Positions 4,769 through 58,808 of a stretch of 64,000 nucleotides of DNA are shown one piece after another. Made by a program: the position numbers and the translations under genes. The stretch covers positions 32,001 to 96,000 of the forward strand of contig BTVJ01000009.1 of assembly GCA_045863395.1 (NCBI GenBank), read 5' to 3'. How positions within the stretch are numbered: position 1 is the stretch's first letter; every line of letters begins with the position of its first letter. Below the pieces are notes generated by a model. The model was given only the letters and a program-made list of their open reading frames with translations, had not been told where the DNA came from and made no database searches. Source of the DNA: Myxococcales bacterium (GTDB lineage: Bacteria; Myxococcota_A; UBA9042; JABWCM01; BTVJ01).

Positions 4769-5872
4769 ATGACGTACCCGCACCGGTGGCCACCGCCTCG
4801 CTGGGCCCTGTCCCTGCTTCTGGTGCTGGTGGCCGATACCCTGGCGTCCCCCCCTGCCTTGACCCCCGAGCGCGCCGCAGCCCTCCAGGAGCATGTTGAC
4901 GCGGGTGGGCTGGCGTTCGAAGCCCGTCGCTACGAAGAGGCCCTCGCCCGGTATGCGACCGCCCTGGAGATTGCCCCGGTGCCCGACCTCCTGTGGAACA
5001 TCGCCCGCTGTCACGAAGAGCTCGGCCATCTGGACGAGGCGGTGGCCACCTTCGAGCAGTACCGGGCACAGGATGTGTCGCCCGCCGACCGGACCGCAGC
5101 GACGGAGAAGCTGGCGCTGCTCTCCCACCGCATGGCAGAGCGCGACAAGGGGACTCTCGTTCTGCGGACGGGACGCGCCGACGCCCAGGTCACCGTGAAC
5201 GGGAGGCCGATGGGGCGCGGGACCGAGGTGGAGGCTCGGCTGGATCCGGGCACACACGGCGTGCGCGTCGAGGCGCCGGGGCTGGCCCCGTGGGAGGCTC
5301 AGATCGCGCTGGGCAAGGGCGAGCGCGTCGAGCGACAGGTGGAGCTCCGGCCATCACCACCGGAGCCTCCAGTCGCGGGGTCGGTGGTCGTCGTGTGTGA
5401 GGCCCCAGGCGCCGTTGTGGACCTGCCGGACGGGGGCGTGGCGAGGCCTGGGCTGCCCATCGAGCTCCCGGCGGGTGAGGTCGATCTGGTCGTGCGTGCC
5501 CCGGGGTACGCCTCGGTTCGCCTGAAGGCCACGGTGGTGGCGGGTCGCCGCGAGGCCCTCCGCGTGGAGCTCGCGGCGGTGGCCCAGCCTCCACCGGAGG
5601 CTCCAGCGGCGGGCCTTTGGCGCTGGGTCACCCTCGGGACGGGGTTGGCCGCCGTCGCCGCTGCCGGAGTGCTCCACGGGCTTGCCGCATCGGACTACGA
5701 GCGGGTCTCCGGCGCAGCCACGGTGGACGGCATCACCGTGGGGATCACCCAGGCGGAGGCTGCTGCGGCTCAAGACGCCGGCGACACCAAGCTGATCGCC
5801 GCGCAGAGCCTGTATGGAGCGGGTGGCGCGGTGCTGGCGACCTCGGTCGTGCTGTTCATCCTCGGCGAGTGA
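4769..5872 (+). CDS. TPR + PEGA domain membrane protein
   Basis: Signal peptide, TPR (LLWNIARCHEELG..EAVATFEQY), PEGA-like GTLVL..ADAQVTVNG..LDPGTHGVRVEAPG, C-terminal hydrophobic helices; follows the kinase by 3 nt. Confidence 0.85.
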   Translation: MTYPHRWPPPRWALSLLLVLVADTLASPPALTPERAAALQEHVDAGGLAFEARRYEEALARYATALEIAPVPDLLWNIARCHEELGHLDEAVATFEQYRAQDVSPADRTAATEKLALLSHRMAERDKGTLVLRTGRADAQVTVNGRPMGRGTEVEARLDPGTHGVRVEAPGLAPWEAQIALGKGERVERQVELRPSPPEPPVAGSVVVVCEAPGAVVDLPDGGVARPGLPIELPAGEVDLVVRAPGYASVRLKATVVAGRREALRVELAAVAQPPPEAPAAGLWRWVTLGTGLAAVAAAGVLHGLAASDYERVSGAATVDGITVGITQAEAAAAQDAGDTKLIAAQSLYGAGGAVLATSVVLFILGE

Positions 5873-5888
5873 TCGACGGTCGCGGTGG

Positions 5889-7136
5889 CTACCCGCGGGT
5901 CCGGACCAGGCGAAAGCCGATGTCGACGTCGCGGGTGTCTGGCGCCTCCGGCCCGCGGTTCGCTGAGCGAGCGGCGCCGGCAGAGTGCTTCCATGAGCCG
6001 CCCCGGACACACCGCATCGAGCCCACCGAGGCTCCCAGCGGGTCGACCTCAGTCGCCACGTGCGGGTAGCTCCCGTAGAGGTCCCAGACCCACTCGTAGA
6101 CGTTCCCGTGAGTGTCGTAGAGACCCCACGCGTTGGGCAGCTTCACGCCGCAGGGGTGAGCGGCCCCCTTGGCGTTCGTGCAGTACCAGCCGTAGGGCGC
6201 CAGGTTGGCCTCCCCGGTGCTGCACGAGCCGCAGGAGGGGGCCACGGCGCCCCCGCCTGGATACTCATCCTCCACGCCGGCCCTCGCCACGTACTCCCAC
6301 TCCGCTTCCGTCGGGAGCCGGAACCCCGAGCAGTCGAGCCCATAGAATCCTGCGGCCTGGCAGGTGAAGTCGACCCCTACGGTCCCCTCGCACCCCACGA
6401 GGGAGTAGCAGGCCTGGAGGCCGGCCGACGCCGACTCCGCGTTGGCGTATGCGAGGGCGTCCCAGAAGCTCACGCCGATCACGGGGCACTCCAGGCAGTC
6501 ATTGGTCTCGGTCGCCGGCAACGGATAGGCCTTGGACCACGCAGCCCGTGACACCTCGGTCTCAGCGACCCACAGCGACCGCTTCAGGGTCACGGTGCGA
6601 ACGGTCTCGTCGGTGTGTCGGCAGGGCTCGTCCTCCGGGGATCCCATCACGAAGGAGCCCGGGGGCGCATAGCACCACCCCTCGGAGCACTGGGGCAGGG
6701 AGTCCACCAACGCACAGAACCCTCCGTTGCAGCTCTCCGGCGCCAGGCACGCCCCGCAGGCCCCTCCGCAGCCGTCCGGACCGCAGACGCGGCCCGCACA
6801 GTCCGGAGCGCAGTAGCACTGGCCGGTGGACGTACACGAGGCCCCGGACGTACAGGCGCCGCATGAGCCTCCGCAGCCATCTGGACCGCACTCGCGGGCC
6901 TCGCATGACGGCGAGCACGGTGCGATGCCATCAGCGACGATCACGTCGGGAGAGGGCGCCGCCCCCACGGCGAGACACACGTTCATCGCTCCACTGCCGT
7001 GGAGAGCGCAGACGAACCCCGGGAGGCAATCGGTGTGGTCGGCACACGCAAAGGTCCCGGACCGGATCTCCAGGTCCGGTGAACACGACGCCACCAGGAG
7101 GAGAGGTCCTGCCACGGTCCAAGGCTTCGGTCTCAC
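5889..7136 (-). CDS. FGE-sulfatase (SUMF1/EgtB/PvdO)-like domain lipoprotein with Cys-rich repeats
   Basis: GSFVMGS, RLPTEAEWEYVARAG, PNAWGLYDTHGNVYEWVWD, RGGSW, GFRLVR; two CGPDGCGG(S/A)CGAC repeats; probable GTG start 7136 before LLLVASC. Confidence 0.85.
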   Translation of the reverse strand: MRPKPWTVAGPLLLVASCSPDLEIRSGTFACADHTDCLPGFVCALHGSGAMNVCLAVGAAPSPDVIVADGIAPCSPSCEARECGPDGCGGSCGACTSGASCTSTGQCYCAPDCAGRVCGPDGCGGACGACLAPESCNGGFCALVDSLPQCSEGWCYAPPGSFVMGSPEDEPCRHTDETVRTVTLKRSLWVAETEVSRAAWSKAYPLPATETNDCLECPVIGVSFWDALAYANAESASAGLQACYSLVGCEGTVGVDFTCQAAGFYGLDCSGFRLPTEAEWEYVARAGVEDEYPGGGAVAPSCGSCSTGEANLAPYGWYCTNAKGAAHPCGVKLPNAWGLYDTHGNVYEWVWDLYGSYPHVATEVDPLGASVGSMRCVRGGSWKHSAGAARSANRGPEAPDTRDVDIGFRLVRTRG

Positions 7137-47664: not shown

Positions 47665-50600
47665 TCACCGGAATTGGGGGCGTCGAGCCCAGGCGGACGA
47701 TGCTGGCCCACGCCGTCGCCGTTCAGGTCGCCCCACGTTGGCGACCGGCGTGCCCGCGCCTGTCAGGCCCGGATCGAGGATGCACTGCCCCCCGTCACCC
47801 TCCGAGGCGTCCAGATCGATGTCCGGCAGGGGCGCGCCGCCGCCGTCGCGCCCGAACGCCAGGCAGAAGCCGCTCAAGTCGCCGCCGCCGAGCGCCAGGT
47901 CCGGCAGGCCGTCGCCGTTGACGTCCCCGACCGCGACCACGACGCTGTCGAGGCGCTCCGGGAAGCCGGCGGGCGGGCTGAAGGAGTGGGTGATGCGCGC
48001 CACGCGCAGCCTCACCAGGTCGGTGCCCACGGTGCCCCCGCCGCTGACCGGCGAGGCGTTGCCCGCGCCGTCCGTCGCCCGCACGGCGAACCACCACATG
48101 CCGTCCGGCAACGCCGACCACCTGCAGGCGGTCGCGTTGACGGAGCGTGTGTCCGGCCCGCGCAGGGTCAGCACGTCGAGGCTGCCCAGGGGATCACCCG
48201 GCGCGGGCATGTCCGGGGCGAGCGGCAGGTCTGTCGCCAGGCAGGCGGCGTCCCAGTCCTCCTCGCTGGTGATGGGCTCGCGGGCATAGCGCACCACGTA
48301 GGACGCGGCCGGGCCGCCGGGGACGCCCGTGTTCGACGCGGGGGGCTGCCACCGGAGCGTGACGGCGGGCAGCCGTGGCATGACGTCCAGCGCCGAGATG
48401 GGCTCGAGCACGGCCTCCTCGGGGGGAGACAGGTCGACGGTCGCCGTGAAGCTGGCGCTGGTCGTGTTTCCGACCGTGTCCTCGGCCGTGACCGTCACCG
48501 TGTGGGTCGCCTGGTCGGGGAGCGAGATCCAGAGGAAGTCGTGGCTCCCGGGGAGGGCGGGGAGCGAGACGGGGGCCGCCAGCGGGAGCCCACCTGCGCT
48601 CAGCGAGAGGCGCCCCGCACCGCCGTCGTTCATCGTGACGCGCAGGTGGCCCTCCAGCGAGGTCGTGGACGCGGGCGCCCGGTCGGACGCTGCACCCCAC
48701 ACGACGACGGCGCCGGACTCCGGGGTCGCAAAGCCGCCAACGTCTCCCGCCACGAAGTCCACGTCCGGCGGCACCAGGTCGACGCGCACCTCGAAGGGAG
48801 CAGTCTCTGCGGCGGGAGCGCCCTCGATGGTCGCCTCGGCCCACAGGGACGTCACGGCGCCGTGGGCGAAGACCACGGAGAGCTCCGCCTCGTGGTCTGC
48901 GGGCACCGCCTGGTCGATGGGCGCTCCGTCCGCGAGCAGGGTCACCAGATCCACGTCTCCGCAGGGGCCCACCCACTCGGCGAGCAATGTGCGGGCGACG
49001 GTCGCGCAGCCGGGCTCGGCGCAGTCGGCCATGCGAATGGCGCCGTCCGCCGGCAGGCCCGCCAGGGCGAGCACGCAGGCGCTCAGCCTCAGGTGCACGT
49101 CCCGGGTCGCGGTGCTCACGTTGCCGGCGGCGTCCCGAGCGCGGGCCTCGATGCGGCGCCACGACTCGGCCGCCGGCGCAACCAGAGTCAAGGCCACCGG
49201 AGCCTCGGGGCCGCCCGACGCCATGCCCGAGGCGCCGAGAATCGCTCCGCCACAGCCCGACCAATCCGGGGCGCAGCCACTCTGCACCAGCAGCTCCCAC
49301 GAGTCTGCGCCCGCCGTCGAGATTGCAGCCGCAGCCTGGAAGCCACCCTTGGACGTCTGCGCGTCGTCTGCGTCGACCAGGTCTGCGCCGGGCGCCAGGA
49401 TCGTGACCTCCGGCGGAGTCGCGTCCACGACGATGGACGCGGGCAGCGTGGCTGCGGTGGCCGTGTTTCCGGCGAAGTCCTCCAGCTCGGCCGCCAGCAC
49501 GTGAACGCCGTCGCTCAGCGCGCCCCACGTCGCGTGGGGGAAGACGGCCTGGTGGTCTGCTCCAGTGACCGTGTCGCCGATCAACGCCTCTCCGTCGCGG
49601 AGCCGCACCGTGGCTCCAGCCTCCGACGCCAGCAGGCGCACGTCCAGCGGCGCGCCGGCCAGCGCGGGGCTGCCTGCGGGCGACAGGAAGGTCAGCGAGA
49701 GTGGCTCGACCTTGACCAGCCACAGGCTCGGGAGGGACAGGGGGCTGCTCGGAGCGAGGCTCGCGTTGCCGACCGCGTCGAAGACGACGGCGCGCACGTC
49801 CTTGAGCCCGTCGGTCGCAAAGTCCAGCGCCGACGTCCCGGCGCCTCCGGTGATCGGGAAGCTCTGCCGGATCTGCCCGTTCACCCAGAGCTGCCCTCCC
49901 CCATTCAAAGGAACGCCGCCGTCCGTGGCGGACACGGCAAAGGCGAAGGTCCCTGGCGCTGCCTGATCGGCCTGGCTCAGCACCCCCGCGGGAGGCAGAG
50001 AGTCCGAAGGGCACGTGATGCCCTGGACAACCGGCGCCACGGTGTCGAGGACAACACGGCGCGACTGGAAGGTGGATCCAGCGTCCGTGGAGGCGGCCCA
50101 CACGTCTGCGCCCGGCACGACCTGCGCCTCTGCGACGAAGGTCTGCGCCCCGTCCGGCGCCCCGGAGGCGCCCACGAGGATCGCCGTCGCGGCCAGTGCC
50201 CCGACTCCCACCTGCACAGTGCCCGGAGTGGCGCAGGCTGGCCCCGCGACCCCGGGCAGGTTCGTGCAGAGACGCACCAGAGAGCCCACCGGCACACCCG
50301 TGGTCTGCACCTGGATCTGCTTGGGCGACGCGATTCCCCATGGGATGTGGCAGACTCCAAGCCAGCAGACACCGGCGCCGCAGTCTGCCGAGCTCCCACA
50401 GGAGCCCCCGGGTGGAGGTGCATTCAGGATGGAGACCACCTGGCCGGACGGGTTCGCCGAGATCACACGCAGGTGGGAGTCTCCGTTGCCGGCCGCGTCC
50501 GCCACGCGGGCCTCCACCGTCCGGGAGCCGGCCTCGGAGATGGTCCAGACCCCGAGAACGACCGTGGTGGGCGCGCCGTCGGGCGCCGTGACTCCCAGGG

Positions 50601-51678
50601 CGGCGCTCAGGGTCGGCGAGCCGTCGAGGGGTGAGCCGGCTGGGACGATTCGCACCTCGACGGTCTGCCCCGCCTGCACGCCAGACACAGAGACGGACAC
50701 GGTCTTCTGGAGTCCTGGGAGCACCGGGTTCTCGTCGTCGGTCGGCCCCAGCACGTCTCCGGATGGGCGCGCGATGGCGTGTATGATCGGCGCGACCCGG
50801 TCCACGAGCACGGTGACGGGGGCCGCCCCGGCCGTGCCGCCAGCCGTCGAGACCCGCGCGTCCAAGGTGCAGACTGCCTGATCGAGCAGACCTACGCCGG
50901 CCCAGGTAACGGACTGTCCGGTGACTGCCGCAGGGAGCTCCGTCACACCCGCGCCGCAGTCTACCGTGATGGTCGCCGTGGCTCCGTCTGCATCCGTAGC
51001 CGCCCCCGCGACGGCGAGGACACAGGGCCCCGGCCCCGGCGCGCAGGCGGCGGACGCGAGATTGAGCACGGCCCCGTCCGCGGGAGACAGCAGGCTGATG
51101 GCGGGCGCGGGCGGGCCACAGGAGAGCCCCTCGTCGGCGAGACCGTCGCAGTCGTCGTCCGCGCCATTGCACACCTCCGGCGGCGGCCCGCCGAGGCTGA
51201 GGCCCAGCGACCGCAGCCAGAACCGATCACGCGCGGCGCAGTGGCCAGCGCCCGCGTGCCGCACCACGACGCGGTCACACCCGGGCGCCGCCACCACCGG
51301 GAACGGCCCGGCAGTCGCCCCCGTGATCTTGAATCCGCAGCCGTTCCAGTCCGGGACCGTGCCGAGGAGCACGTCTCCGGTGGGGCACCGGAGCAGCACG
51401 TCTGCCGACTCGTTGCACTGCGGCTGTGTGAACGGGAGCTGCCCGGTGGCTGTAGTCTGGACGGTCACCTGGTGGAGCGACCCGGGACACGCGCGCGCGA
51501 GCGCCGCGGCCACGAAGACCACCTCCTCCGAGCACGGGAGCCCGCCACCGCAGCACAGGATCTTCGCGCCGTTCCAGCCCTCGCTGCCAAGCTGGAGGTC
51601 CGCGCGGGCGCTGGACCCCTGGGTGGCGCAAACGACGAGGAGCAGCCCTGTCCCGAGACGCACCGATGCAGACATCAT
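47665..51678 (-). CDS. Large secreted Ig-like repeat protein with MopE-like metal-binding motif and truncated FG-GAP region (C-terminal frameshift)
   Basis: GGAGG RBS before ATG 51678; EVCNGADDDCDGLADEG; repeated D.AGN...VD..PP Ig-like units; VGDVNGDGLPDLALG; a second GDLNGDG is out of frame. Confidence 0.8.
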   Translation of the reverse strand: MMSASVRLGTGLLLVVCATQGSSARADLQLGSEGWNGAKILCCGGGLPCSEEVVFVAAALARACPGSLHQVTVQTTATGQLPFTQPQCNESADVLLRCPTGDVLLGTVPDWNGCGFKITGATAGPFPVVAAPGCDRVVVRHAGAGHCAARDRFWLRSLGLSLGGPPPEVCNGADDDCDGLADEGLSCGPPAPAISLLSPADGAVLNLASAACAPGPGPCVLAVAGAATDADGATATITVDCGAGVTELPAAVTGQSVTWAGVGLLDQAVCTLDARVSTAGGTAGAAPVTVLVDRVAPIIHAIARPSGDVLGPTDDENPVLPGLQKTVSVSVSGVQAGQTVEVRIVPAGSPLDGSPTLSAALGVTAPDGAPTTVVLGVWTISEAGSRTVEARVADAAGNGDSHLRVISANPSGQVVSILNAPPPGGSCGSSADCGAGVCWLGVCHIPWGIASPKQIQVQTTGVPVGSLVRLCTNLPGVAGPACATPGTVQVGVGALAATAILVGASGAPDGAQTFVAEAQVVPGADVWAASTDAGSTFQSRRVVLDTVAPVVQGITCPSDSLPPAGVLSQADQAAPGTFAFAVSATDGGVPLNGGGQLWVNGQIRQSFPITGGAGTSALDFATDGLKDVRAVVFDAVGNASLAPSSPLSLPSLWLVKVEPLSLTFLSPAGSPALAGAPLDVRLLASEAGATVRLRDGEALIGDTVTGADHQAVFPHATWGALSDGVHVLAAELEDFAGNTATAATLPASIVVDATPPEVTILAPGADLVDADDAQTSKGGFQAAAAISTAGADSWELLVQSGCAPDWSGCGGAILGASGMASGGPEAPVALTLVAPAAESWRRIEARARDAAGNVSTATRDVHLRLSACVLALAGLPADGAIRMADCAEPGCATVARTLLAEWVGPCGDVDLVTLLADGAPIDQAVPADHEAELSVVFAHGAVTSLWAEATIEGAPAAETAPFEVRVDLVPPDVDFVAGDVGGFATPESGAVVVWGAASDRAPASTTSLEGHLRVTMNDGGAGRLSLSAGGLPLAAPVSLPALPGSHDFLWISLPDQATHTVTVTAEDTVGNTTSASFTATVDLSPPEEAVLEPISALDVMPRLPAVTLRWQPPASNTGVPGGPAASYVVRYAREPITSEEDWDAACLATDLPLAPDMPAPGDPLGSLDVLTLRGPDTRSVNATACRWSALPDGMWWFAVRATDGAGNASPVSGGGTVGTDLVRLRVARITHSFSPPAGFPERLDSVVVAVGDVNGDGLPDLALGGGDLSGFCLAFGRDGGGAPLPDIDLDASEGDGGQCILDPGLTGAGTPVANVGRPERRRRGPASSAWARRPQFR

Positions 51679-51804
51679 GGACACATCCTCCATGGAAGTT
51701 GCCGACGTGTGCGAAGCCCCGGGACAGGCGAGGGAGAGGCCCACGCGAGAGAGCCTCCCCCTCCCGAGGGGGATCGGTCTCTGTCCGCGGGGCATGCTGA
51801 GCCA

Positions 51805-51966
51805 AGGCGCCGGTGCACGACAACCTGTGCCATTCGGCCCCCGCTGCATCCCCGCTGGCAGCCTGGCGAGACCTTGGAAGGACAAGGCCCTGCCTGCGGC
51901 CTCGCCAGACTGCCAGCGGGGCGCATCGGGACCCTCGATGGATCAGGTTGTTATGCACCGGCGCCT
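51805..51966. repeat. ~162-bp nested palindromic element (MITE-like)
   Basis: Terminal IR AGGCGCCGGTGCACGACAACCTG / CAGGTTGTTATGCACCGGCGCCT (21/23); inner IR CCCCGCTGGCAGCCTGGCGAG / CTCGCCAGACTGCCAGCGGGG. Confidence 0.75.
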
Positions 51967-52177
51967 GACATGGAGCGCGGAGAGGGCGCGTCAAGTGAGG
52001 TCTGCGCAGAGCGCGCACATTCGACCGGCGGGGAGCGGTGCAGCGCCCTCGTCGGTGTCCCGTGCCGCGTGTCCGAGTCCGCATGGCGTGCGGCCTTTGC
52101 GACACATCCCCGAGGGCGCACCTCCGGCTGAGGGAGACGCGGGCGTCGATCCCGGTGCGCCTCGCCCGATCACACCG

Positions 52178-53521
52178 TCACTCGGGGCAGCTCAGGGGCT
52201 CCTGGGCCGGGGCGCCGGGGAGCACCCGCGAGGCGGCGTGGCGAGCGGCGCTGAGGGCGAGGCGGCCGGCGTCGACGAGGTCGGTCGGCTTCATCTCCCA
52301 GAAGCTGCCGCCGTGCATGTCGTCGAAGAGGCTCCGGTACTGGGCCAGCACCTCCTCGCGCCACGCCGGGTCGATGGTCAGCGCCTTGTCCGCGAACTTG
52401 TGGCACCAGCGGCAGCTCTCGCAGTCCTGGTCGATACAGGAGCGCTCACGGAAGCGGTCGACGAAGCCGTCCATCTTGCGGTTGTCGAGCACGAGCGGGG
52501 ACTCGCCGCGCCGGGGGTAGAGCAGCCCCATGGTGCGCCCGAGCTTCGAGAGCTTCGGCACCTTGGTCACGTTCACCTGGCTCGGCTTGAAGAAGTACTT
52601 CACGGCGCGGCGGAGACTGTAGGCGTCGCGGGACGCCTTGCTCGTGTAGGACCGCTCCGGGTAGTTGAACGGGAGCACCAGGTCGAGCAGGTTGCCGTCA
52701 TAGCGGCGGTTGGCGTAGGCGTGGACCCGGCGCAGCAGCTCCGGCGTCGGTGTGTTGCGCTCCACGATCTTGAAGTTGGTGTAGCCCATCTCCTCGTAGA
52801 TGCGCAGATCCTCGGGGCGGATCCAGTTGGCGCGCACGTAGTTGACCGGCTCGCGCAGGCGATAGTCCAGGCAGAACAGCATGTGGTAGTCGAGGGGGAG
52901 ACTCCCCTTCCGGCCCTTCTGGTGCTGGGAGCCGTGGCTGAGGCTCGACGCGTGAGTCCCGGCGATGGCGCAGTCCTGGCGGCAGGAATTGTTCACGATG
53001 AGAGAGAGGTCGCAGGTGACCGCCTCACGGATGGCGCGGAGCGCCGCGAACTCCCGGGCGAAGGCCACCTCGTTGAGCACGATGCAGTCTGCCCCGTGGT
53101 CTTGCCAGAAGCGGGCTTTGCGGGGACTGTCCGTGAAGCGGTGGGCGCTGATTCGCACCTTGAAGTGCGGGTAGCTCTTCTTGATGAGCTGGAGCAGGTA
53201 GATCTGCCCCACGGTGATCGAGTCGACGCCGATGCCGCTCGCCCAGTCGAGGGTGTCGCGGATCTGGCGGTTGCCCTCGCGGGTGTACTCCGCGTTGCCC
53301 ATGCACGAGGCGTTGAGCAGGTAGTTGAACTGGATCCCCTTGGCGTGGACCTTCTTCACGAAGCGCTCCACGGTGCCGCGGTCGGCCTGGGGCAGGTAGA
53401 ACGAGGGGCGTCCGCCGCCAGCGTAGTCGCGGGTGACCTTGCCGTAGACCTCGTAGACGGGGTAGCCGGACAGGCCCTCGATGAGGGCCTCGTCGAAGTT
53501 GCACGCAACGCTCAGTCGCAC
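52178..53521 (-). CDS. U32 'peptidase' family Fe-S protein (putative hydroxylase)
   Basis: FNYLLNASC, VDSITV, VNNSCRQDC, ..LFC, WIRPED, FKIVER, C-terminal CIDQDCESCRWC. Confidence 0.8.
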   Translation of the reverse strand: MRLSVACNFDEALIEGLSGYPVYEVYGKVTRDYAGGGRPSFYLPQADRGTVERFVKKVHAKGIQFNYLLNASCMGNAEYTREGNRQIRDTLDWASGIGVDSITVGQIYLLQLIKKSYPHFKVRISAHRFTDSPRKARFWQDHGADCIVLNEVAFAREFAALRAIREAVTCDLSLIVNNSCRQDCAIAGTHASSLSHGSQHQKGRKGSLPLDYHMLFCLDYRLREPVNYVRANWIRPEDLRIYEEMGYTNFKIVERNTPTPELLRRVHAYANRRYDGNLLDLVLPFNYPERSYTSKASRDAYSLRRAVKYFFKPSQVNVTKVPKLSKLGRTMGLLYPRRGESPLVLDNRKMDGFVDRFRERSCIDQDCESCRWCHKFADKALTIDPAWREEVLAQYRSLFDDMHGGSFWEMKPTDLVDAGRLALSAARHAASRVLPGAPAQEPLSCPE

Positions 53522-53522
53522 G

Positions 53523-54665
53523 TCAGGCCTCCAGGTGGGGAGTGGGGCATTGGGGGACGACGCGGACCGGGGCGTCCGCCGCGTCGAGGAGCGTGGTCGC
53601 CCGCCGCGTGAGAGTCTCGACGACCTCCCGCTGGAGCGCCGCGAGCTGCGCCACCGTGATCTGCTGCTCGGCGTCGGAGAGCGCCATGTCCGGGTCCGGG
53701 TGGACCTCGATCATCACCGCCTGGGCGCCGGACGCGAACGCCGCGGCGGCCAGCGGGGCCAGGATGTCCCGCCGTCCGGCGGCGTGGCTGACGTCCACCG
53801 CGACGGGCAGTCGGGTGCGACCCAGCGCCAGCGGGACCGCCGAGAGATCGAGCGTGCTGCGGGTGTCCGGCGAGAAGGTGCGGATGCCGCGCTCGCAGAG
53901 GATGATGTCGTCGGAGCCCGACAGGGCCACGTACTCGGCGGCGTTCACCCACTCGTCGATGGTGGCGCCGAAGCCGCGCTTGAGCAGCACGGGCTTGCCG
54001 GTCTGGCCCGCCGCGCGCAGCAGGTCGAAGCTCGCCATGTTGCGGGCGCCAATCTGGATGATGTCGGCGTAGCGGGCGACCAGGTCTACGTTCTGCGGGC
54101 TCGTCGCCTCCGTGATGGTCGCCATGCCGTGCTCCTCGGCGGCCGCGGCGAGGAGCGCGAGGCCGCGCTCGCCGAGGCCCTGGAAGGCGTAGGGCGACGT
54201 GCGCGGCTTGAAGGCGCCGCCGCGCAGGAAGCGCACGCCGAGCTTGTGCAGGCCCGCCGTCACGCGCGCCATCTGCTCCTCGCTCTCGACGGAGCACGGG
54301 CCAGCCACGTAGCAGGCGGTGCCGGCGCCGATGGTGTGGCCCTTCACGGTGACCACGACGGGGGGGCCTCCCAAAGAGGAGACACGCAGGGTGCGGCGGC
54401 GACCGCCCTCGGCGAGGGCGACGCAGGCGTCGATGATGCCGCGAAACAGGCTGCGGACGGTGGCGTCGTCGAAGGGGCCGTGGTTGTGCTGGAGGAGCCG
54501 CGCCAGGAGCAGGTCCTCCCGCTGGGGGTCCCGCACCGGCATGCCGCGGCGCTGCTTCTCGTGGGCGATGGCGAGGGCCGTGCGGGCGCGCTCGCTCAGG
54601 GTGTCCAGGATCTCCAGGGACAGCGCCTCGATGGTGTCCCGGAGCTCTTCGAGGGGTTCGTTCAT
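53523..54665 (-). CDS. aroF: Bifunctional chorismate mutase (AroQ) - DAHP synthase (class I-beta)
   Basis: N-terminal LEELRDTI..LSER..EK...RDPQRE; AGPCSVES, RGGAFKPRTSPYAFQGLG, QIGARNM, LKRG, CERGIRTF, DVSHAAG, IEVHPDP..ALSD. Confidence 0.93.
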   Translation of the reverse strand: MNEPLEELRDTIEALSLEILDTLSERARTALAIAHEKQRRGMPVRDPQREDLLLARLLQHNHGPFDDATVRSLFRGIIDACVALAEGGRRRTLRVSSLGGPPVVVTVKGHTIGAGTACYVAGPCSVESEEQMARVTAGLHKLGVRFLRGGAFKPRTSPYAFQGLGERGLALLAAAAEEHGMATITEATSPQNVDLVARYADIIQIGARNMASFDLLRAAGQTGKPVLLKRGFGATIDEWVNAAEYVALSGSDDIILCERGIRTFSPDTRSTLDLSAVPLALGRTRLPVAVDVSHAAGRRDILAPLAAAAFASGAQAVMIEVHPDPDMALSDAEQQITVAQLAALQREVVETLTRRATTLLDAADAPVRVVPQCPTPHLEA

Positions 54666-54730
54666 CGTCGGTCCTCGTGGTAGAAGGCTGGTGGCGCACC
54701 AGCGGACGTCTATATACTCAAGACGATTTT

Positions 54731-54749
54731 TGTATGAAAGAAAAATACA
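54731..54749. promoter_or_regulatory. Dyad TGTAT-N9-ATACA in AT-rich divergent promoter region (candidate operator)
   Basis: AT-rich island (~54708-54752) between the divergent aroF and MerR genes. Confidence 0.35.
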
Positions 54750-54766
54750 CATCGTGCGAGCTGGGA

Positions 54767-56248
54767 ATGAAGGAGCTGGTGGAGGCATCCGGCGTGCACC
54801 GGCAGACCATCCACTCGTACCTGCGGGAGGGGCTCCTGCCCGAGCCCTGCGCCGGGGCCGGCACGCGCAACGCCCGCTATGGCATGAGGCACGTGGAGCT
54901 GCTGCGGCTGCTGCGAGAGCTGCGCGACGAGCGGGGCCTGTCGCTGGACGCCATCCGCCGCGCCTTCGAGCGGGCGGCCTTCGACCCGGACACGGCGCGG
55001 CGCGCCCTCGAAGGCGGGCTCCCGCCGTCGCCGCTCTTGCGCCTGGACCCGCCGGAGCGCCTGTCCATGGCGGAGGTCGCCGAGCGCGCGGAGTCCCCGG
55101 TGGAGACCGTCGAGGCGCTCATCGAGGCGGCCGTGCTCGCCCCCGAGGAGGCGAGCGGGCGGACGTGGCTCGACGACGAGGCGGTGGCGGTGGTCGCGGC
55201 GGCACACGCGCTGCACACCCTCGGCGTGCCCGAGGATCGCGTCGTGCGCCTTGCGCAGATCGCCAGGCGCGTCGCCTCCCTGGAGACCCGGGCCCTGGTC
55301 GAGGACGCCACCGGCGCCGCAGAGGGCCACGGGGCGATCCTGGCGCGGGCCGAGGCACGGCACGAGGCGGTGGGGACGCTGATCGACGCCGTGCGCCTCG
55401 CCGCGCTGCACGACGTCGGGCGCCGGCTGGCGGAGGTGCAACCGCGGACGGTCCAGTTCGCCCTCGACGCCATCTACGTGCCGAGCCCGCTGTTCGTGCG
55501 CAGGCACCGCCTCGACCGGGTCGTCGCCAGCGTGGAGGCGGCGGCGGGGGACGGCGCGAGCGCGGCCGACCTGGAGCGCCTCGGGCGTCTGCTGCTCGGC
55601 CTCGGACGCTACGCCGAAGCCGAGCACTGGCTGGAGCGGGCGGCCCAGCTCGACCCGGAGCTGGCGGACATCTGGTCCTACCTGGGCCTGGCGCGCGCCT
55701 TGGCGGGGCGCATCGCCCACGGCCTCGCGTCCTGCCGCCGCGCCGTGGAGCTTGCGCCGCAGTCAGCGCGCGCCTCGGCCTTCCTCGCGGTGGCGCTCGC
55801 CCTCTACGCCGCGACCACGACGGGCATGGGGGAGGCGACGGAGGTGCTCCGGGGCGCCTTGCAGGAGGCCCGCCGCAGCCGCGAGCTCACCCCCCGCGAC
55901 ATGCCGGAGCGCATGGAGGTCATGCTGTCCCGGGGGCGCATGTTCACGGTGCTCCCGAGACCGCTCGGCGACGGCGCCGCAGGCGAGGCGGAGCTCCAGG
56001 AGGTGCTCGCGCGCACGGAGGGCACCACCGACGCGGACAACGGCTTCGACCTCCCGGGCACCAACGAGCTCTACCGGGTGCACGCCCTCTACTACCTGGG
56101 CGTGGCGGCGCGGGACGCGGGCCAGCGAGACGAGGCGAGCCGCCTGCTGCGCGAGTGCATCGTCATCGACCCGGGCAGCCGCTTCGCCGAGCGGGCCTAC
56201 GAGGCCCTCGGGGCGCTGGGGTCGCTTACGTACTCAGCGACGCGTTGA
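54767..56248 (+). CDS. Transcriptional regulator with two MerR-like HTH domains and C-terminal TPRs (alternative start 54734)
   Basis: MKELVEASGVHRQTIHSYLREGLL...ARY...GLSLDAIR; second LSMAEVAERA..VETVEALIEAAVL; TPR motifs LGRYAEAEHWLERAAQLDP and ALYYLG. Confidence 0.8.
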   Translation: MKELVEASGVHRQTIHSYLREGLLPEPCAGAGTRNARYGMRHVELLRLLRELRDERGLSLDAIRRAFERAAFDPDTARRALEGGLPPSPLLRLDPPERLSMAEVAERAESPVETVEALIEAAVLAPEEASGRTWLDDEAVAVVAAAHALHTLGVPEDRVVRLAQIARRVASLETRALVEDATGAAEGHGAILARAEARHEAVGTLIDAVRLAALHDVGRRLAEVQPRTVQFALDAIYVPSPLFVRRHRLDRVVASVEAAAGDGASAADLERLGRLLLGLGRYAEAEHWLERAAQLDPELADIWSYLGLARALAGRIAHGLASCRRAVELAPQSARASAFLAVALALYAATTTGMGEATEVLRGALQEARRSRELTPRDMPERMEVMLSRGRMFTVLPRPLGDGAAGEAELQEVLARTEGTTDADNGFDLPGTNELYRVHALYYLGVAARDAGQRDEASRLLRECIVIDPGSRFAERAYEALGALGSLTYSATR

Positions 56249-56310: not shown

Positions 56311-57237
56311 ATGACCGACATCGCGCCCCGGCTCGACCTCAAGGTCGGGTTCTCCTGCAACAACCGCTGCATCTTCTGCGTGCAGGGGGACAAGCGGCAC
56401 CACATCGGGGACCGCACGACGGACGAGGTGCGGGCCATCCTCGACGAGCGGCGGGGGGCGGCCGAGGGGGTCGTGTTCACCGGGGGCGAGGCGACCATCC
56501 GGGAGGATCTCGTCGAGCTGGTCGCCCACGCCCGCGCCTTGGGCTACCGGACCATCCAGGTGCAGACCAACGGGCGGCGCCTCGCGTACCTGCCCTACGC
56601 CCGGGCGCTGGTGGAGGCGGGAGCGACCGAGTTCTCACCGGCGCTGCACGGCTCGACGCCGGCGATCCACGACCTGCTGACCCGCGCCAAGGGCGCCTTC
56701 CGCCAGGTGGTGCAGGGGATCCAGAACGTGAAGGGCCTCGGGGTGCCCGTGATCACGAACAGCGTCATCGTGAAGCAGAACGTGCAGGATCTGCCGGAGC
56801 TGGCGCGGCTGCTGGTGCGCCTCGGGGTGGACCAGCTCCAGCTCGCGTTCGTCCACCCGGCGGGAACGGCGGAGCACAACTTCGCGGACGTGGTGCCGCG
56901 GTTCACCGACGCCCTGCCCTTCATCCGTCGCGCCCTGGACATCGCCCGGGCCGCGGGTGCGCGCGCCTTCACCGAGGCGGTCCCGTACTGCTTCATGCAG
57001 GGCTACGAGGCGCACGTCGTGGAGGGGCGCATCCCGGACACCTGCGTCGTCGACGCCCCGATGGTCATCGACGACTACACCGAGTACCGCTGGAGCGAGG
57101 GCAAGGCCCACGGGGAGCCGTGCGGGCGGTGCACCTGGGCGCGGGTGTGCGAGGGGCCGTGGCACGAGTATCCGCGGGAGTATGGCTGGAGCGAGGTGGT
57201 CCCCCGCACCGACGATCCGCGGGGCTTCGGCGTGTGA
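56311..57237 (+). CDS. Radical SAM enzyme with C-terminal auxiliary Cys cluster (HxsC-like)
   Basis: CNNRCIFC, FTGGEAT, QTNGR, PYC, CGRCTWARVCEG. Confidence 0.9.
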   Translation: MTDIAPRLDLKVGFSCNNRCIFCVQGDKRHHIGDRTTDEVRAILDERRGAAEGVVFTGGEATIREDLVELVAHARALGYRTIQVQTNGRRLAYLPYARALVEAGATEFSPALHGSTPAIHDLLTRAKGAFRQVVQGIQNVKGLGVPVITNSVIVKQNVQDLPELARLLVRLGVDQLQLAFVHPAGTAEHNFADVVPRFTDALPFIRRALDIARAAGARAFTEAVPYCFMQGYEAHVVEGRIPDTCVVDAPMVIDDYTEYRWSEGKAHGEPCGRCTWARVCEGPWHEYPREYGWSEVVPRTDDPRGFGV

Positions 57238-57239
57238 CC

Positions 57240-58613
57240 TCAGCTCAGCGGCTCGAACCGCGAGGTGAAGTGGCGGAGCCGGGGCGCCTCCCAGGTGAAG
57301 CGGTAGCCGCGGAGCGCCCCGCGGGCCTCGTTGACCTCCTCCAGCGCCTCGGCGACGTACTCGATGTGGCTCTGGGTGTAGACCCGCCGGGGCAGCGCCA
57401 GGCGCACCAGATCCACCGGAGGCTCCACGTACTCGCCGGTCGTCTTGTCCGTCCGCCCGAACATCACACCGCCCACCTCCACCGCCCGCACGCCGGCGTG
57501 GACGTAGAGCGCGTTGACCAGCGCGAGGCCGGGGAACTCGCGGAGCGGGATGTGGGGCAACATGCGCCGCGCGTCCACGTAGACGGCGTGGCCGCCCGGC
57601 GGGAGCACCGTCGGTACGCCCACGGACTCCAGGTGCTCCGACAGGAAGGCCGCCGTGCGCACCCGGTAGCGCATGTAGTCCTCGTCGACCACCTCCTCCA
57701 GGCCCTGGGCGATGGCGTCCAGGTCGCGCCCGGAGAGGCCCCCGTAGGTGGGGAAGCCCTCGGTGAGGATCAGCGGTCCGCGGGCGCTCTCTGACAGGGC
57801 CTTGTCCCGGAGCGCCAGGAAGCCGCCCATGTTCACGAGGCCGTCCTTCTTGGCGCTCATGGTGCAGCCGTCCACGTGGTCGAACATCTCGCGCGCGACG
57901 TCGGCGAGCGGGCGGTCGGCATGACCGGGCTCGCGCGTCTTGATGAACCAGGCGTTCTCTGCGAAGCGGCACGCGTCGAGGAACATGGGCACCTTGTGCC
58001 GGTCGCAGACGGCGCGCGCCCCTCGCAGGTTGGCCATGCTGACCGGCTGCCCCCCCGCGGCGTTGTTGGTCACCGTCATGATCACGAGGGCCACCTTGGA
58101 GCCGAGGCGGCCGAGCGTGGCGTCCAGGCGGTCGAGGTCCATGTCGCCCTTGAACGGGGCCGGCTCGTGCAGGTCGGCCGCGGCCGCACAGGGGAGGTCG
58201 ATGGCCTCGGCGCCCCGGGCCTCCACGTTGGCGCGGGTCGTGTCGAAGTGGGTGTTGGAGATCACCACCTGCCCGGGCTCCACCATGAGCTCGAAGAGCA
58301 GGTGCTCCGCGGCGCGCCCCTGGTGGGTCGGGATCACGTAGGGCATGCCCGTCCTGCGCTGCACTGCGGCCTCGAAGCGGTAGAAGCTCTCGCTCCCTGC
58401 GTATGCCTCGTCGCCACGCATCATGGCGGCCCACTGCTCGCTGGACATGGCCGACGTGCCGCTGTCGGTGAGCAGGTCGATCATCACGTCGCGGGCGTGC
58501 AGCAGGAACACGTTGTAGCCGGCCTCCCGGATCCGCGCGCGGCGCTCGTCCTCCGTCGTCATGCGGATGGGCTCGACCATCTTGATCTTGAAAGGCTCGA
58601 TGAGGCTGCGCAT
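57240..58613 (-). CDS. tnaA: Tryptophanase (beta-eliminating lyase)
   Basis: EPFKIKMVEPI, DLLTDSGT, HQGRAAE, FDTTR, TMSAKKD PLP-Lys, EGFPTYGGL. LRHFT (His) and EVG (no Arg) favour tryptophanase over tyrosine phenol-lyase. Confidence 0.88.
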   Translation of the reverse strand: MRSLIEPFKIKMVEPIRMTTEDERRARIREAGYNVFLLHARDVMIDLLTDSGTSAMSSEQWAAMMRGDEAYAGSESFYRFEAAVQRRTGMPYVIPTHQGRAAEHLLFELMVEPGQVVISNTHFDTTRANVEARGAEAIDLPCAAAADLHEPAPFKGDMDLDRLDATLGRLGSKVALVIMTVTNNAAGGQPVSMANLRGARAVCDRHKVPMFLDACRFAENAWFIKTREPGHADRPLADVAREMFDHVDGCTMSAKKDGLVNMGGFLALRDKALSESARGPLILTEGFPTYGGLSGRDLDAIAQGLEEVVDEDYMRYRVRTAAFLSEHLESVGVPTVLPPGGHAVYVDARRMLPHIPLREFPGLALVNALYVHAGVRAVEVGGVMFGRTDKTTGEYVEPPVDLVRLALPRRVYTQSHIEYVAEALEEVNEARGALRGYRFTWEAPRLRHFTSRFEPLS

Positions 58614-58808
58614 GGATCCTCCTTCAGCGTGGCGGGCGATCCCTATCACGAACGGGACAAGCGGGTCCATTTGGGCGAGGCGCTGGTGGTGACAACGACC
58701 TCCGGGCTGGAAGCGCTCCGGGATCGTCACGAACACCTCACCGGGGAGCCTCGAGGTCCGCTACACTGCCCGTCCAGAACCCAGCTCCACTGTGGGAGGC
58801 GAGAGCTC

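Follow-up and report, generated by a model that had tools for sequence, protein, structure and literature searches.

A U32-family protein encoded with a chorismate mutase-DAHP synthase in a Myxococcales bacterium: a candidate O2-independent, prephenate-fed squalene epoxidase

Introduction

Proteins of the U32 family have been described in the hydroxylation of RNA and in anaerobic ubiquinone synthesis. The member treated here, the window U32, is encoded beside a fusion of chorismate mutase (CM) and DAHP synthase (DAHPS) in a 64,000-nucleotide stretch of a Myxococcales bacterium (contig BTVJ01000009.1, positions 32,001 to 96,000), referred to as the window. TrhP, which is said to hydroxylate tRNA, reportedly has in common with the window U32 the U32 barrel and a pathway dependence on prephenate and Fe-S. 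Passages of PMC5727448 give the same features for RlhA, which hydroxylates rRNA. Unlike these two, the clade of the window U32 is patchy and is tied to sterol genes rather than to housekeeping. Most U32 subfamilies are uncharacterised according to the literature passages available.

As far as passages of PMC10990095 describe them, UbiU and UbiV resemble the window U32 in family, in Cys-rich motifs, in serving a lipid pathway and in the oxygen donor, which for the window U32 would likewise be prephenate. Like the cassette formed by the CM-DAHPS and U32 genes, they coexist with flavin monooxygenases that depend on O2 and are the alternative under aerobic conditions. The same passages name prephenate as the O donor in anaerobic ubiquinone synthesis, and the chemistry proposed there for UbiU/V removes two electrons from the substrate and quenches the oxidised form with hydroxide derived from prephenate as it decarboxylates. 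The window U32 differs from UbiU/UbiV in being a single 447-aa gene product with another Cys spacing and a C-terminal CX4CX2CX2C domain. The cassette is linked to oxidosqualene cyclase (OSC) instead of ubi genes and carries its own DAHPS, and the proposed reaction is an alkene epoxidation, unlike the arene hydroxylation of UbiU/UbiV.

Passages of PMC8237579, PMC7306690 and PMC12414744 describe sterol synthesis and squalene epoxidation as O2-dependent and confined to aerobes, and part of SI Text 1 of PMC8237579 uses this premise to infer an aerobic life for uncultured bacteria that bear OSC. The premise also underlies the dating of OSC evolution and the reading of steranes as oxygen markers. 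We propose that the window U32 is probably an O2-independent squalene 2,3-epoxidase that takes its O atom from prephenate. A sequence-only reading of the window had proposed a prephenate-fed U32 enzyme, unlike the characterised clades, with an unknown substrate. The separate clade is borne out and the prephenate link strengthened below, and the OSC and squalene monooxygenase (SQMO) patterns narrow the substrate to a probable one, squalene.

A U32 clade apart from RlhA, TrhP and UbiU/V

The sole Pfam match of the window U32 is PF01136 (38.2 bits, cut-off 22.4, residues 86-174). No DUF3656 or other additional Pfam domain was found, and the NCBIfam search assigned no family. In phmmer comparisons with the E. 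coli proteins the window U32 is barely alignable, scoring 13 bits with TrhP, 11 (10.7) with UbiU, 2 with RlhA and -3 with UbiV, which amounts to no alignment. A 92-row quick tree, built from every third genome-locus row, chosen rows and every fourth row of a thinned distant set, splits the query family from all 26 canonical U32 rows (branch SH-aLRT 99) and unites the close homologs in a clade of 43 rows (SH-aLRT 99), with long branches among the reference U32s limiting its deeper order. The earlier impression that the protein is unlike RlhA, TrhP and UbiU/V agrees with both the tree and the NCBIfam result. Among the best 120 homologs listed, identity to the window U32 is 53-100%, and those with named taxa belong to Myxococcota or Deltaproteobacteria. 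Clade members are at least 53% identical and share 37 clade-specific conserved residues. The wider family around them stands at about 32-45% identity (440 cluster representatives at E<=1e-30).

The predicted structure (pLDDT 95.4) is a TIM barrel with a helical C-terminal part. Its best match in both sequence (E 7e-9) and fold is Mk0906 of Methanopyrus kandleri (5d88), with Z 20.4 (next 12.3), rmsd 2.7 and 227 aligned residues in VIA-align, and 5d88 is also first in Foldseek (E 4.5e-13). The two proteins are 21-22% identical over 247-254 aa, and only residues 1-259 of the window U32 are covered. The Kimura 2017 table gives the M. kandleri U32s the label PepU32#6. The PDB sequence and fold searches returned only Mk0906 and generic barrels, with no RlhA, TrhP or UbiU/V structure among the matches listed, and the ESM Atlas search matched only unnamed U32 clusters.

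All of the 70 clade sequences compared carry C180, C184, H190 and C217, and conservation of these residues is 90% or more in 143 wider-family sequences. In a profile alignment they fall in the cysteine region of RlhA, with a CX3C spacing that differs from its C169/C176 pair, and they are putative ligands of an Fe-S cluster. The same holds for C362, C367, C370 and C373, which do not vary among the 70, reach 90% conservation or more in the wider family, and could form a second Fe-S site or a zinc site. The helix at about residues 301-311 (303-310 in the model) has the highest hydrophobic moment of the protein and lies in a basic stretch (residues 296-340, 11 K/R vs 2 D/E). It is a possible membrane anchor or contact.

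Membership of the window U32 in the SQMO (PF08491) or AltSQE families was considered and rejected, since it matches PF01136 only and has neither an FAD monooxygenase nor a fatty-acid hydroxylase domain. We propose that it is a non-homologous substitute for these enzymes.

Association of the clade with oxidosqualene cyclase

The close U32 clade was followed in the best 80 of 127 genome loci and the best 80 of 133 metagenome loci, and a 401-genome sample of the phylum served as comparison background. The genomes are mutually related metagenome-assembled genomes (MAGs), several of which stand in both samples. This overlap and the lack of independence among kin make Fisher values overstate the association. 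An OSC was found in 78 of the 80 clade genomes versus 48 of the 401 genomes of the phylum sample (12%). It lies within the fetched locus in 41 of the 80 and elsewhere in 37 of the other 39 (two broken or partial). OSC is the next gene downstream of U32 in 27 genome loci and 39 metagenome loci, and stands at most 1.8 kb downstream in 36 genome loci.

Within the phylum sample, 13 of the 17 close-clade genomes have an OSC, versus none of the seven with only distant homologs (28-43%), and one of the four OSC-less close-clade genomes (G149) matches a genome whose OSC is in two pieces. Six genomes of this sample place U32 amid mevalonate, farnesyl pyrophosphate synthase (FPPS), hpnC/D/E or cyclase genes, five of them with both CM-DAHPS and cyclase. 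Records of co-occurrence span Myxococcota, Spirochaetota, Bacteroidota and Pseudomonadota. In a spirochaete order, 11 of 121 genomes have an OSC; ten of these have a close U32, directly upstream of the OSC in nine, and no close U32 was found in the 110 OSC-less genomes. The spirochaete U32-OSC genomes are probably one lineage.

Judged by motifs and model scores, the partner cyclases are true OSCs. The acid motif of the 41 locus cyclases is DCTAE in 34, DCTSE in five, DCTGE in one and truncated in one, with DXDD in none. Their best model is TIGR03463 at 685-739 bits, which is below its cut-off of 851 and above that of TIGR01787. The cyclase of G012, a genome described below, matches human lanosterol synthase at E 2e-157 versus 1e-45 for squalene-hopene cyclase. 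Cycloartenol-type Y/H/I residues are clear in 27 and partial in five of 37 OSCs.

Some further genes were noted at these loci. A GGR-family flavoprotein occurs in 14 of the 80, mostly between U32 and OSC (L050:12915-14099, L051:8349-9449, L053:1908-3089), and is a candidate O2-independent sterol side-chain reductase. In the fen-type operons (L091:13543-17144, 5315-6523 and similar ones), a DUF3419 gene precedes, and a set of archaeal-type thiolase, ChsH2 (DUF35) and HMG-CoA synthase genes with DUF116 follows. Distant U32 homologs (33-43%; L016, L062-L066) stand with type III polyketide synthase (PKS) and methyltransferase-like, B12 radical-SAM-like or stand-alone CM-like genes, the CM-like gene beside the distant U32 of G231 being divergent. 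In locus L060 a B12 radical-SAM gene stands directly upstream of the U32 gene, at a distance of 1 nt.

Replacement of squalene monooxygenase

Before the SQMO search, the genomes were grouped by the content of the U32 locus. In 46 operon-type genomes the locus holds an OSC (41) or else isoprenoid-type genes of other kinds (5), and 34 genomes are stand-alone. SQMO (PF08491) was found in 5 of the 46 versus 31 of the 34. In the phylum sample it occurs in 32 of 35 OSC genomes without U32 versus 7 of 13 with U32, and six of the nine OSC genomes that lack SQMO have U32. In the spirochaete order no SQMO was found in any of the 11 OSC genomes. A 37-row tree mixes U32-only OSCs with SQMO-partnered ones and forces at least five changes, and the swap between U32 and SQMO was therefore not one event. 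An OSC-seeded search of 10 loci, too few to weigh, gave SQMO in six, U32 in two (one seed genome), neither in two and both in none. A SQMO protein query matched none of five SQMO-less genomes; this search had no positive control, and the family searches are relied on.

Part of the SI of PMC8237579 states that SQMO is almost always flanked by OSC, so that the place beside OSC that U32 takes in these operons is usually that of SQMO. The U32-OSC operons share pathway position, gene slot and kind of cyclase with the bacterial sqmo-osc operons and AltSQE. SQMO and AltSQE use O2, whereas the window candidate is an unrelated, putatively Fe-S, barrel protein coupled to the shikimate pathway. Two genomes show the arrangement most fully: G012 (one contig, 93% complete) and G024 (five contigs, 94%) have hpnC/D/E, FPPS, CM-DAHPS, U32 and OSC together, with shikimate genes alongside. 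Neither gave a match to SQMO, P450, the fatty-acid hydroxylase family of AltSQE or haem-copper oxidase (COX1), and both have cytochrome bd. Among the 41 SQMO-less operon genomes, matches to the COX1 family are absent in 19, weak only in 14 and strong (E < 1e-100) in eight; strong matches are found in 29 of the 34 stand-alone genomes.

Since the clade tracks OSCs and takes the place of SQMO, squalene epoxidation is the more probable reaction, rather than hydroxylation of RNA, a quinone or a secondary metabolite.

Linkage to DAHPS and prephenate

The two genes of the cassette were said to be separated by 1 nt, and the junction sequence indeed reads stop codon, single base, start codon. Their adjacency is conserved in homologs beyond chance: a DAHPS directly adjoins U32 in 57 of the 80 genome loci and 46 of the 80 metagenome loci. 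It is directly upstream in 53 and 44 of these, respectively, and in the remaining four and two a Bacteroidota-type DAHPS-CM is directly downstream. The genes overlap in 15 of the 53 genome loci with an upstream DAHPS, the gap being estimated from alignment ends. Two unrelated fusions on opposite sides of U32 suggest that the pairing was selected more than once.

The operon of G012 is adjoined by aroE-aroK, aroA, aroC and aroB, the last two of which are set apart by two mevalonate genes, and in G024 aroD, aroE-aroK, aroA and aroB follow hpnC/D/E. These aro genes may be the housekeeping copies of those genomes. The Bacteroidota members with their different, downstream DAHPS-CM and the aro genes beside the operons of G012 and G024 strengthen the link to prephenate. 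This linkage to DAHPS/CM and aro genes is what supports the proposed prephenate-dependent, O2-independent oxygenation by the window U32.

The genome of the window, G000, has further enzymes of both kinds besides the cassette, so that the window copy is not its sole DAHPS, which would have counted against the earlier proposal. Three further DAHPS were found, a type I-beta and a type I-alpha enzyme on contig C26 and a type I-beta enzyme in a menaquinone cluster on C43, together with a TyrA-type chorismate mutase on C107. The type I-alpha gene (C26:82711-83595; L004, L298) lies directly downstream of CYP51-like and ERG4/24 genes on the same strand and is a second DAHPS-sterol link. In the window, aroA, aroB, aroC and aroE/K gave no match, which agrees with the remark that other shikimate genes are not nearby; the aro genes of G000 are on C1 and C33.

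The window CM-DAHPS scores 437 bits against PRK12595 (cut-off 279), has the Pfam domains CM_2 (residues 8-84) and DAHP_synth_1 (109-351), and contains the DAHPS motifs. It has the architecture of the AroA(Q)-type enzymes of Bacillus, Geobacillus and Listeria (PRK12595). Unlike those, it is an extra copy beside U32 in a genome with three other DAHPS. Among the AroQ catalytic residues, the equivalents of E. coli R11, R28, K39, D48, R51 and E52 are retained, and S84 and Q88 are replaced by C and A. The arginines, the lysine and the glutamate are conserved in 47-48 of 48 CM-DAHPS sequences; the Gln88 equivalent is Met in 37 of the 48. In passages of PMC5526877, the N-terminal CM domains of such DAHPS have low activity and mediate inhibition by prephenate. 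On these grounds, the CM domain of the window enzyme may have little catalytic activity and serve chiefly to sense prephenate. The proposal that the operon boosts prephenate supply therefore stands as to the prephenate link and is weakened as to the mutase: since such CM domains are reported to be weakly catalytic and an inhibition site, 'prephenate-tuned supply' is safer wording than 'boosted mutase activity'.

Sterol genes and respiration of G000

G000 (8.77 Mb, 97% complete) has no U32 match other than the window U32. Its OSC is on C26 (86464-88557; L298:4465-6555), scores 744 bits and carries the variant DTTAE, while the usual GYN segment is absent. It clusters with the cyclase of G394, away from the U32-adjacent OSCs. 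Adjoining it are ERG4/24, SdmB- and SdmA-like genes and a P450 that we take, from its motifs, to be CYP51-like. The genome also has SQMO (on C65), mevalonate genes, three COX1-family genes, cytochrome bd and NrfHA. The nearest group of eight relatives (69-79% identity; L014, L070-L076) is entirely stand-alone, and all have both OSC and SQMO. This pattern fits a facultative organism that could enter sterol synthesis either with O2 or without it. The later steps, CYP51 and SdmA, need O2, and therefore the anoxic products would be unmodified protosterols.

Proposed reaction and alternative explanations

In the proposed scheme, CM-DAHPS would make the flux into the shikimate pathway respond to the prephenate pool, not to aromatic amino acids. 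The Fe-S site of the barrel would take two electrons from a terminal alkene of squalene, and the decarboxylative aromatisation of prephenate would supply the oxygen and the driving force, with the C-terminal four-Cys site handing the electrons on. The net outcome would be conversion of the terminal trisubstituted alkene to the 2,3-epoxide, with release of phenylpyruvate, CO2 and two electrons. The amphipathic helix is a plausible membrane contact, and the genome's OSC would then form protosterol. In G000 the cassette would be an anoxic back-up to SQMO, as UbiU/V is for UbiH/I/F; in many relatives it would be the only candidate route to oxidosqualene. The genes, motifs, neighbourhoods and presence/absence patterns described above are observed, and the substrate, product, cluster chemistry and regulation are what we infer from them.

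Several points weigh against squalene epoxidation. Alkene epoxidation with water-level oxygen is more uphill, and epoxidation by a U32 protein is without precedent. The known U32 reactions in the passages of PMC10990095 hydroxylate aromatic or pyrimidine rings, and as of that paper direct activity of RlhA and TrhP had not been shown, in vitro assays being awaited. The proposal stems from comparative genomics, and the reaction as drawn would need an oxidant. The window U32 is on a different contig than the G000 OSC, its sterol link being clade membership and co-occurrence, and the cassette has neither an FNR-like box (at most two mismatches, within 300 bp upstream) nor a sigma-54 box. Among the clade genomes, OSC had no match in two of 80, and an adjacent DAHPS is absent from 23 of the 80 genome loci. 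In three members, G032, G267 and G197 (loci L060, L057 and L061; family f24, completeness 96-100%, identity 55-61%), neither a triterpene cyclase nor a squalene/phytoene synthase was matched. The clade therefore does not always act on endogenous squalene, and a change of substrate in these three is possible. Three stand-alone genomes lack SQMO. SQMO and this U32 are both missing from four OSC genomes, G224, G103 and G191 of the phylum sample and G599 of the spirochaetes. Among the four, completeness is 82% in one, the OSC stands at a contig end in two (and is partial in one of these), and the cyclase is divergent in the remaining one. A U32 match in G224, whose OSC is near a contig end, was rejected as a clade member, being an unrelated U32. 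Cytochrome bd is present in four of five genomes tested (three of the four SQMO-less ones). From their oxidase genes, the SQMO-less hosts are not all strict anaerobes, and some can probably use O2. NrdD had no match in any of the five and is uninformative as an anaerobe marker.

An unlikely alternative, though the one we take most seriously, is that the window copy or the whole clade hydroxylates a non-sterol substrate (RNA, a quinone, a phenolic lipid or a secondary metabolite) with prephenate, the sterol link reflecting ancestry or hitch-hiking. The window cassette has no isoprenoid gene nearby, its sub-clade is always stand-alone, and the three members without cyclase and squalene synthase (two near B12 radical-SAM-like genes) and the distant relatives beside type III PKS or B12 radical-SAM genes point the same way. 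However, hitch-hiking accounts poorly for co-occurrence with OSC in 78 of 80 genomes across four phyla or for the pattern of SQMO replacement, and all nine genomes of the nearest group, G000 included, have an OSC against a 12% background. The single clade, with its identity level and clade-specific residues, argues for one function.

Slightly less probable is action at another sterol step, either O2-independent hydroxylation of the cyclised sterol, in place of CYP51 or SdmA, or attack on squalene at a position other than 2,3. Hydroxylation is the known outcome of U32 chemistry, and the four operon-type genomes tested also lack P450s and fatty-acid hydroxylases, which leaves further oxygenation gaps. 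Oxidosqualene is nevertheless the obligatory gap, the OSC otherwise having no substrate: early-branching bacterial OSCs did not act on squalene in the passages of PMC12414744, and the order U32-then-OSC matches that of sqmo-osc. It is improbable that the epoxide comes from another enzyme, such as the GGR-like flavoprotein or a trace-O2 oxygenase, or that the cyclases protonate squalene, with U32 as an accessory. The GGR-family gene does follow U32 in some operons, some hosts have oxidases, and absence from MAGs is never proof. Yet that gene occurs in just the 14 loci, is missing from G012, G024, the spirochaetes and most fen-type operons, and scores as GG-red-SF, not SE, while among the operons no further conserved gene of unknown role comes up repeatedly. 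Protonation of squalene is also at odds with cyclases that have DCTAE-type motifs without DXDD and that interleave with SQMO-partnered OSCs. Epoxidation of squalene by the U32 protein is thus the reading we retain as probable.

Transcripts, upstream elements and neighbouring genes

The features of the window discussed here are collected in Table 1. Sludge metatranscriptomes of two studies gave four assemblies in which CM-DAHPS and U32 are covered by one contig (about 51939-54693), which ends near the gene limits and differs from the window pair by eight substitutions and no indels. The contig fits co-transcription and is no proof of it, because RNA libraries can contain DNA; such contigs give neither expression rank nor strand. 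A sigma-70 promoter scan of 51800-55000 found no site, and a terminator scan of the same region gave one match, at chance level.

Among the relatives, an FNR-like palindrome stands 57-178 bp upstream in 14 of 33 stand-alone cassettes (eight exact) and in none of 42 operon-type ones, against 40 of 1340 background windows (12 exact). A Crp/Fnr gene adjoins the cassette in L071, L090 and L104. A sigma-54-like element is upstream in 16 of 42 operon-type and two of 33 stand-alone cassettes, against 10 of 1883 background windows.

The divergent MerR-TPR gene beside the window cassette has the same placement in L014, L072 and L158 (3 of 160 loci). Between it and the CM-DAHPS start is a short inverted repeat, a possible operator or hairpin, with no counterpart in the stretches upstream of the L014 and L072 cassettes that were compared. 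Farther along, an open reading frame (ORF), whose start is probably slightly downstream of that listed, gave no Pfam or NCBIfam match and shows a radical-SAM-like motif by eye. The tryptophanase/tyrosine phenol-lyase family gene that follows is not kept near the cassette in relatives, and the large secreted-type protein encoded downstream of U32 is unrelated to the cassette.

Table 1. Positions of the cassette, its putative sites and neighbouring features in the window
Feature	Positions	Strand	Remarks
CM-DAHPS: AroQ-type N-terminal chorismate mutase / type I-beta DAHP synthase	53523..54665	-	380 aa, ATG at 54665
U32-family putative Fe-S protein, sterol-linked clade, candidate O2-independent squalene epoxidase	52178..53521	-	447 aa, GTG start
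Putative active-site cluster ligands C180, C184, H190, C217 (CX3C-X5-H-X26-C)	52871..52984	-	conserved residues
C-terminal CX4CX2CX2C: C362, C367, C370, C373	52403..52438	-	conserved Cys
Basic amphipathic helix, residues ~301-311, insertion outside barrel	52589..52621	-	hydrophobic moment, model
Divergent MerR-HTH + TPR regulator; possible cassette regulator, this sub-clade only	54734..56248	+	Pfam MerR_1, TPR
Inverted repeat	54684..54700		7 bp, 3-nt loop
ORF with radical-SAM-like motif	56316..57237	+	CX3CX2C
Tryptophanase / tyrosine phenol-lyase family gene	57240..58736	-	PRK13238
Large secreted-type protein	47665..51885	-	Ig-like (Big_13) repeats

Implications

In the literature searched, which covers subscription journals to a small extent, no link of U32 or prephenate to squalene or sterols was found, and the supplements of PMC8237579 and PMC7306690 gave no match to 'U32'. 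That literature knows both the enzyme family and the pathway, but neither their combination nor the reaction. With slightly less confidence than for the enzyme itself, and at a little above even weight, we suggest that diverse uncultured bacteria, some without haem-copper oxidase or any oxygenase found, make protosterols without O2 by means of U32 and prephenate. If this is true, oxidosqualene-derived lipids alone would be no proof of oxygen or of aerobic metabolism, whether found in anoxic habitats of today or preserved in rocks, and OSC would not have to be younger than the rise of O2. It would also offer a route to sterol and triterpenoid skeletons in anoxic fermentations. For the family and its hosts, an O2-independent epoxidase would break the O2 premise at the first sterol step and would add a new type of reaction to those of U32 proteins and prephenate.

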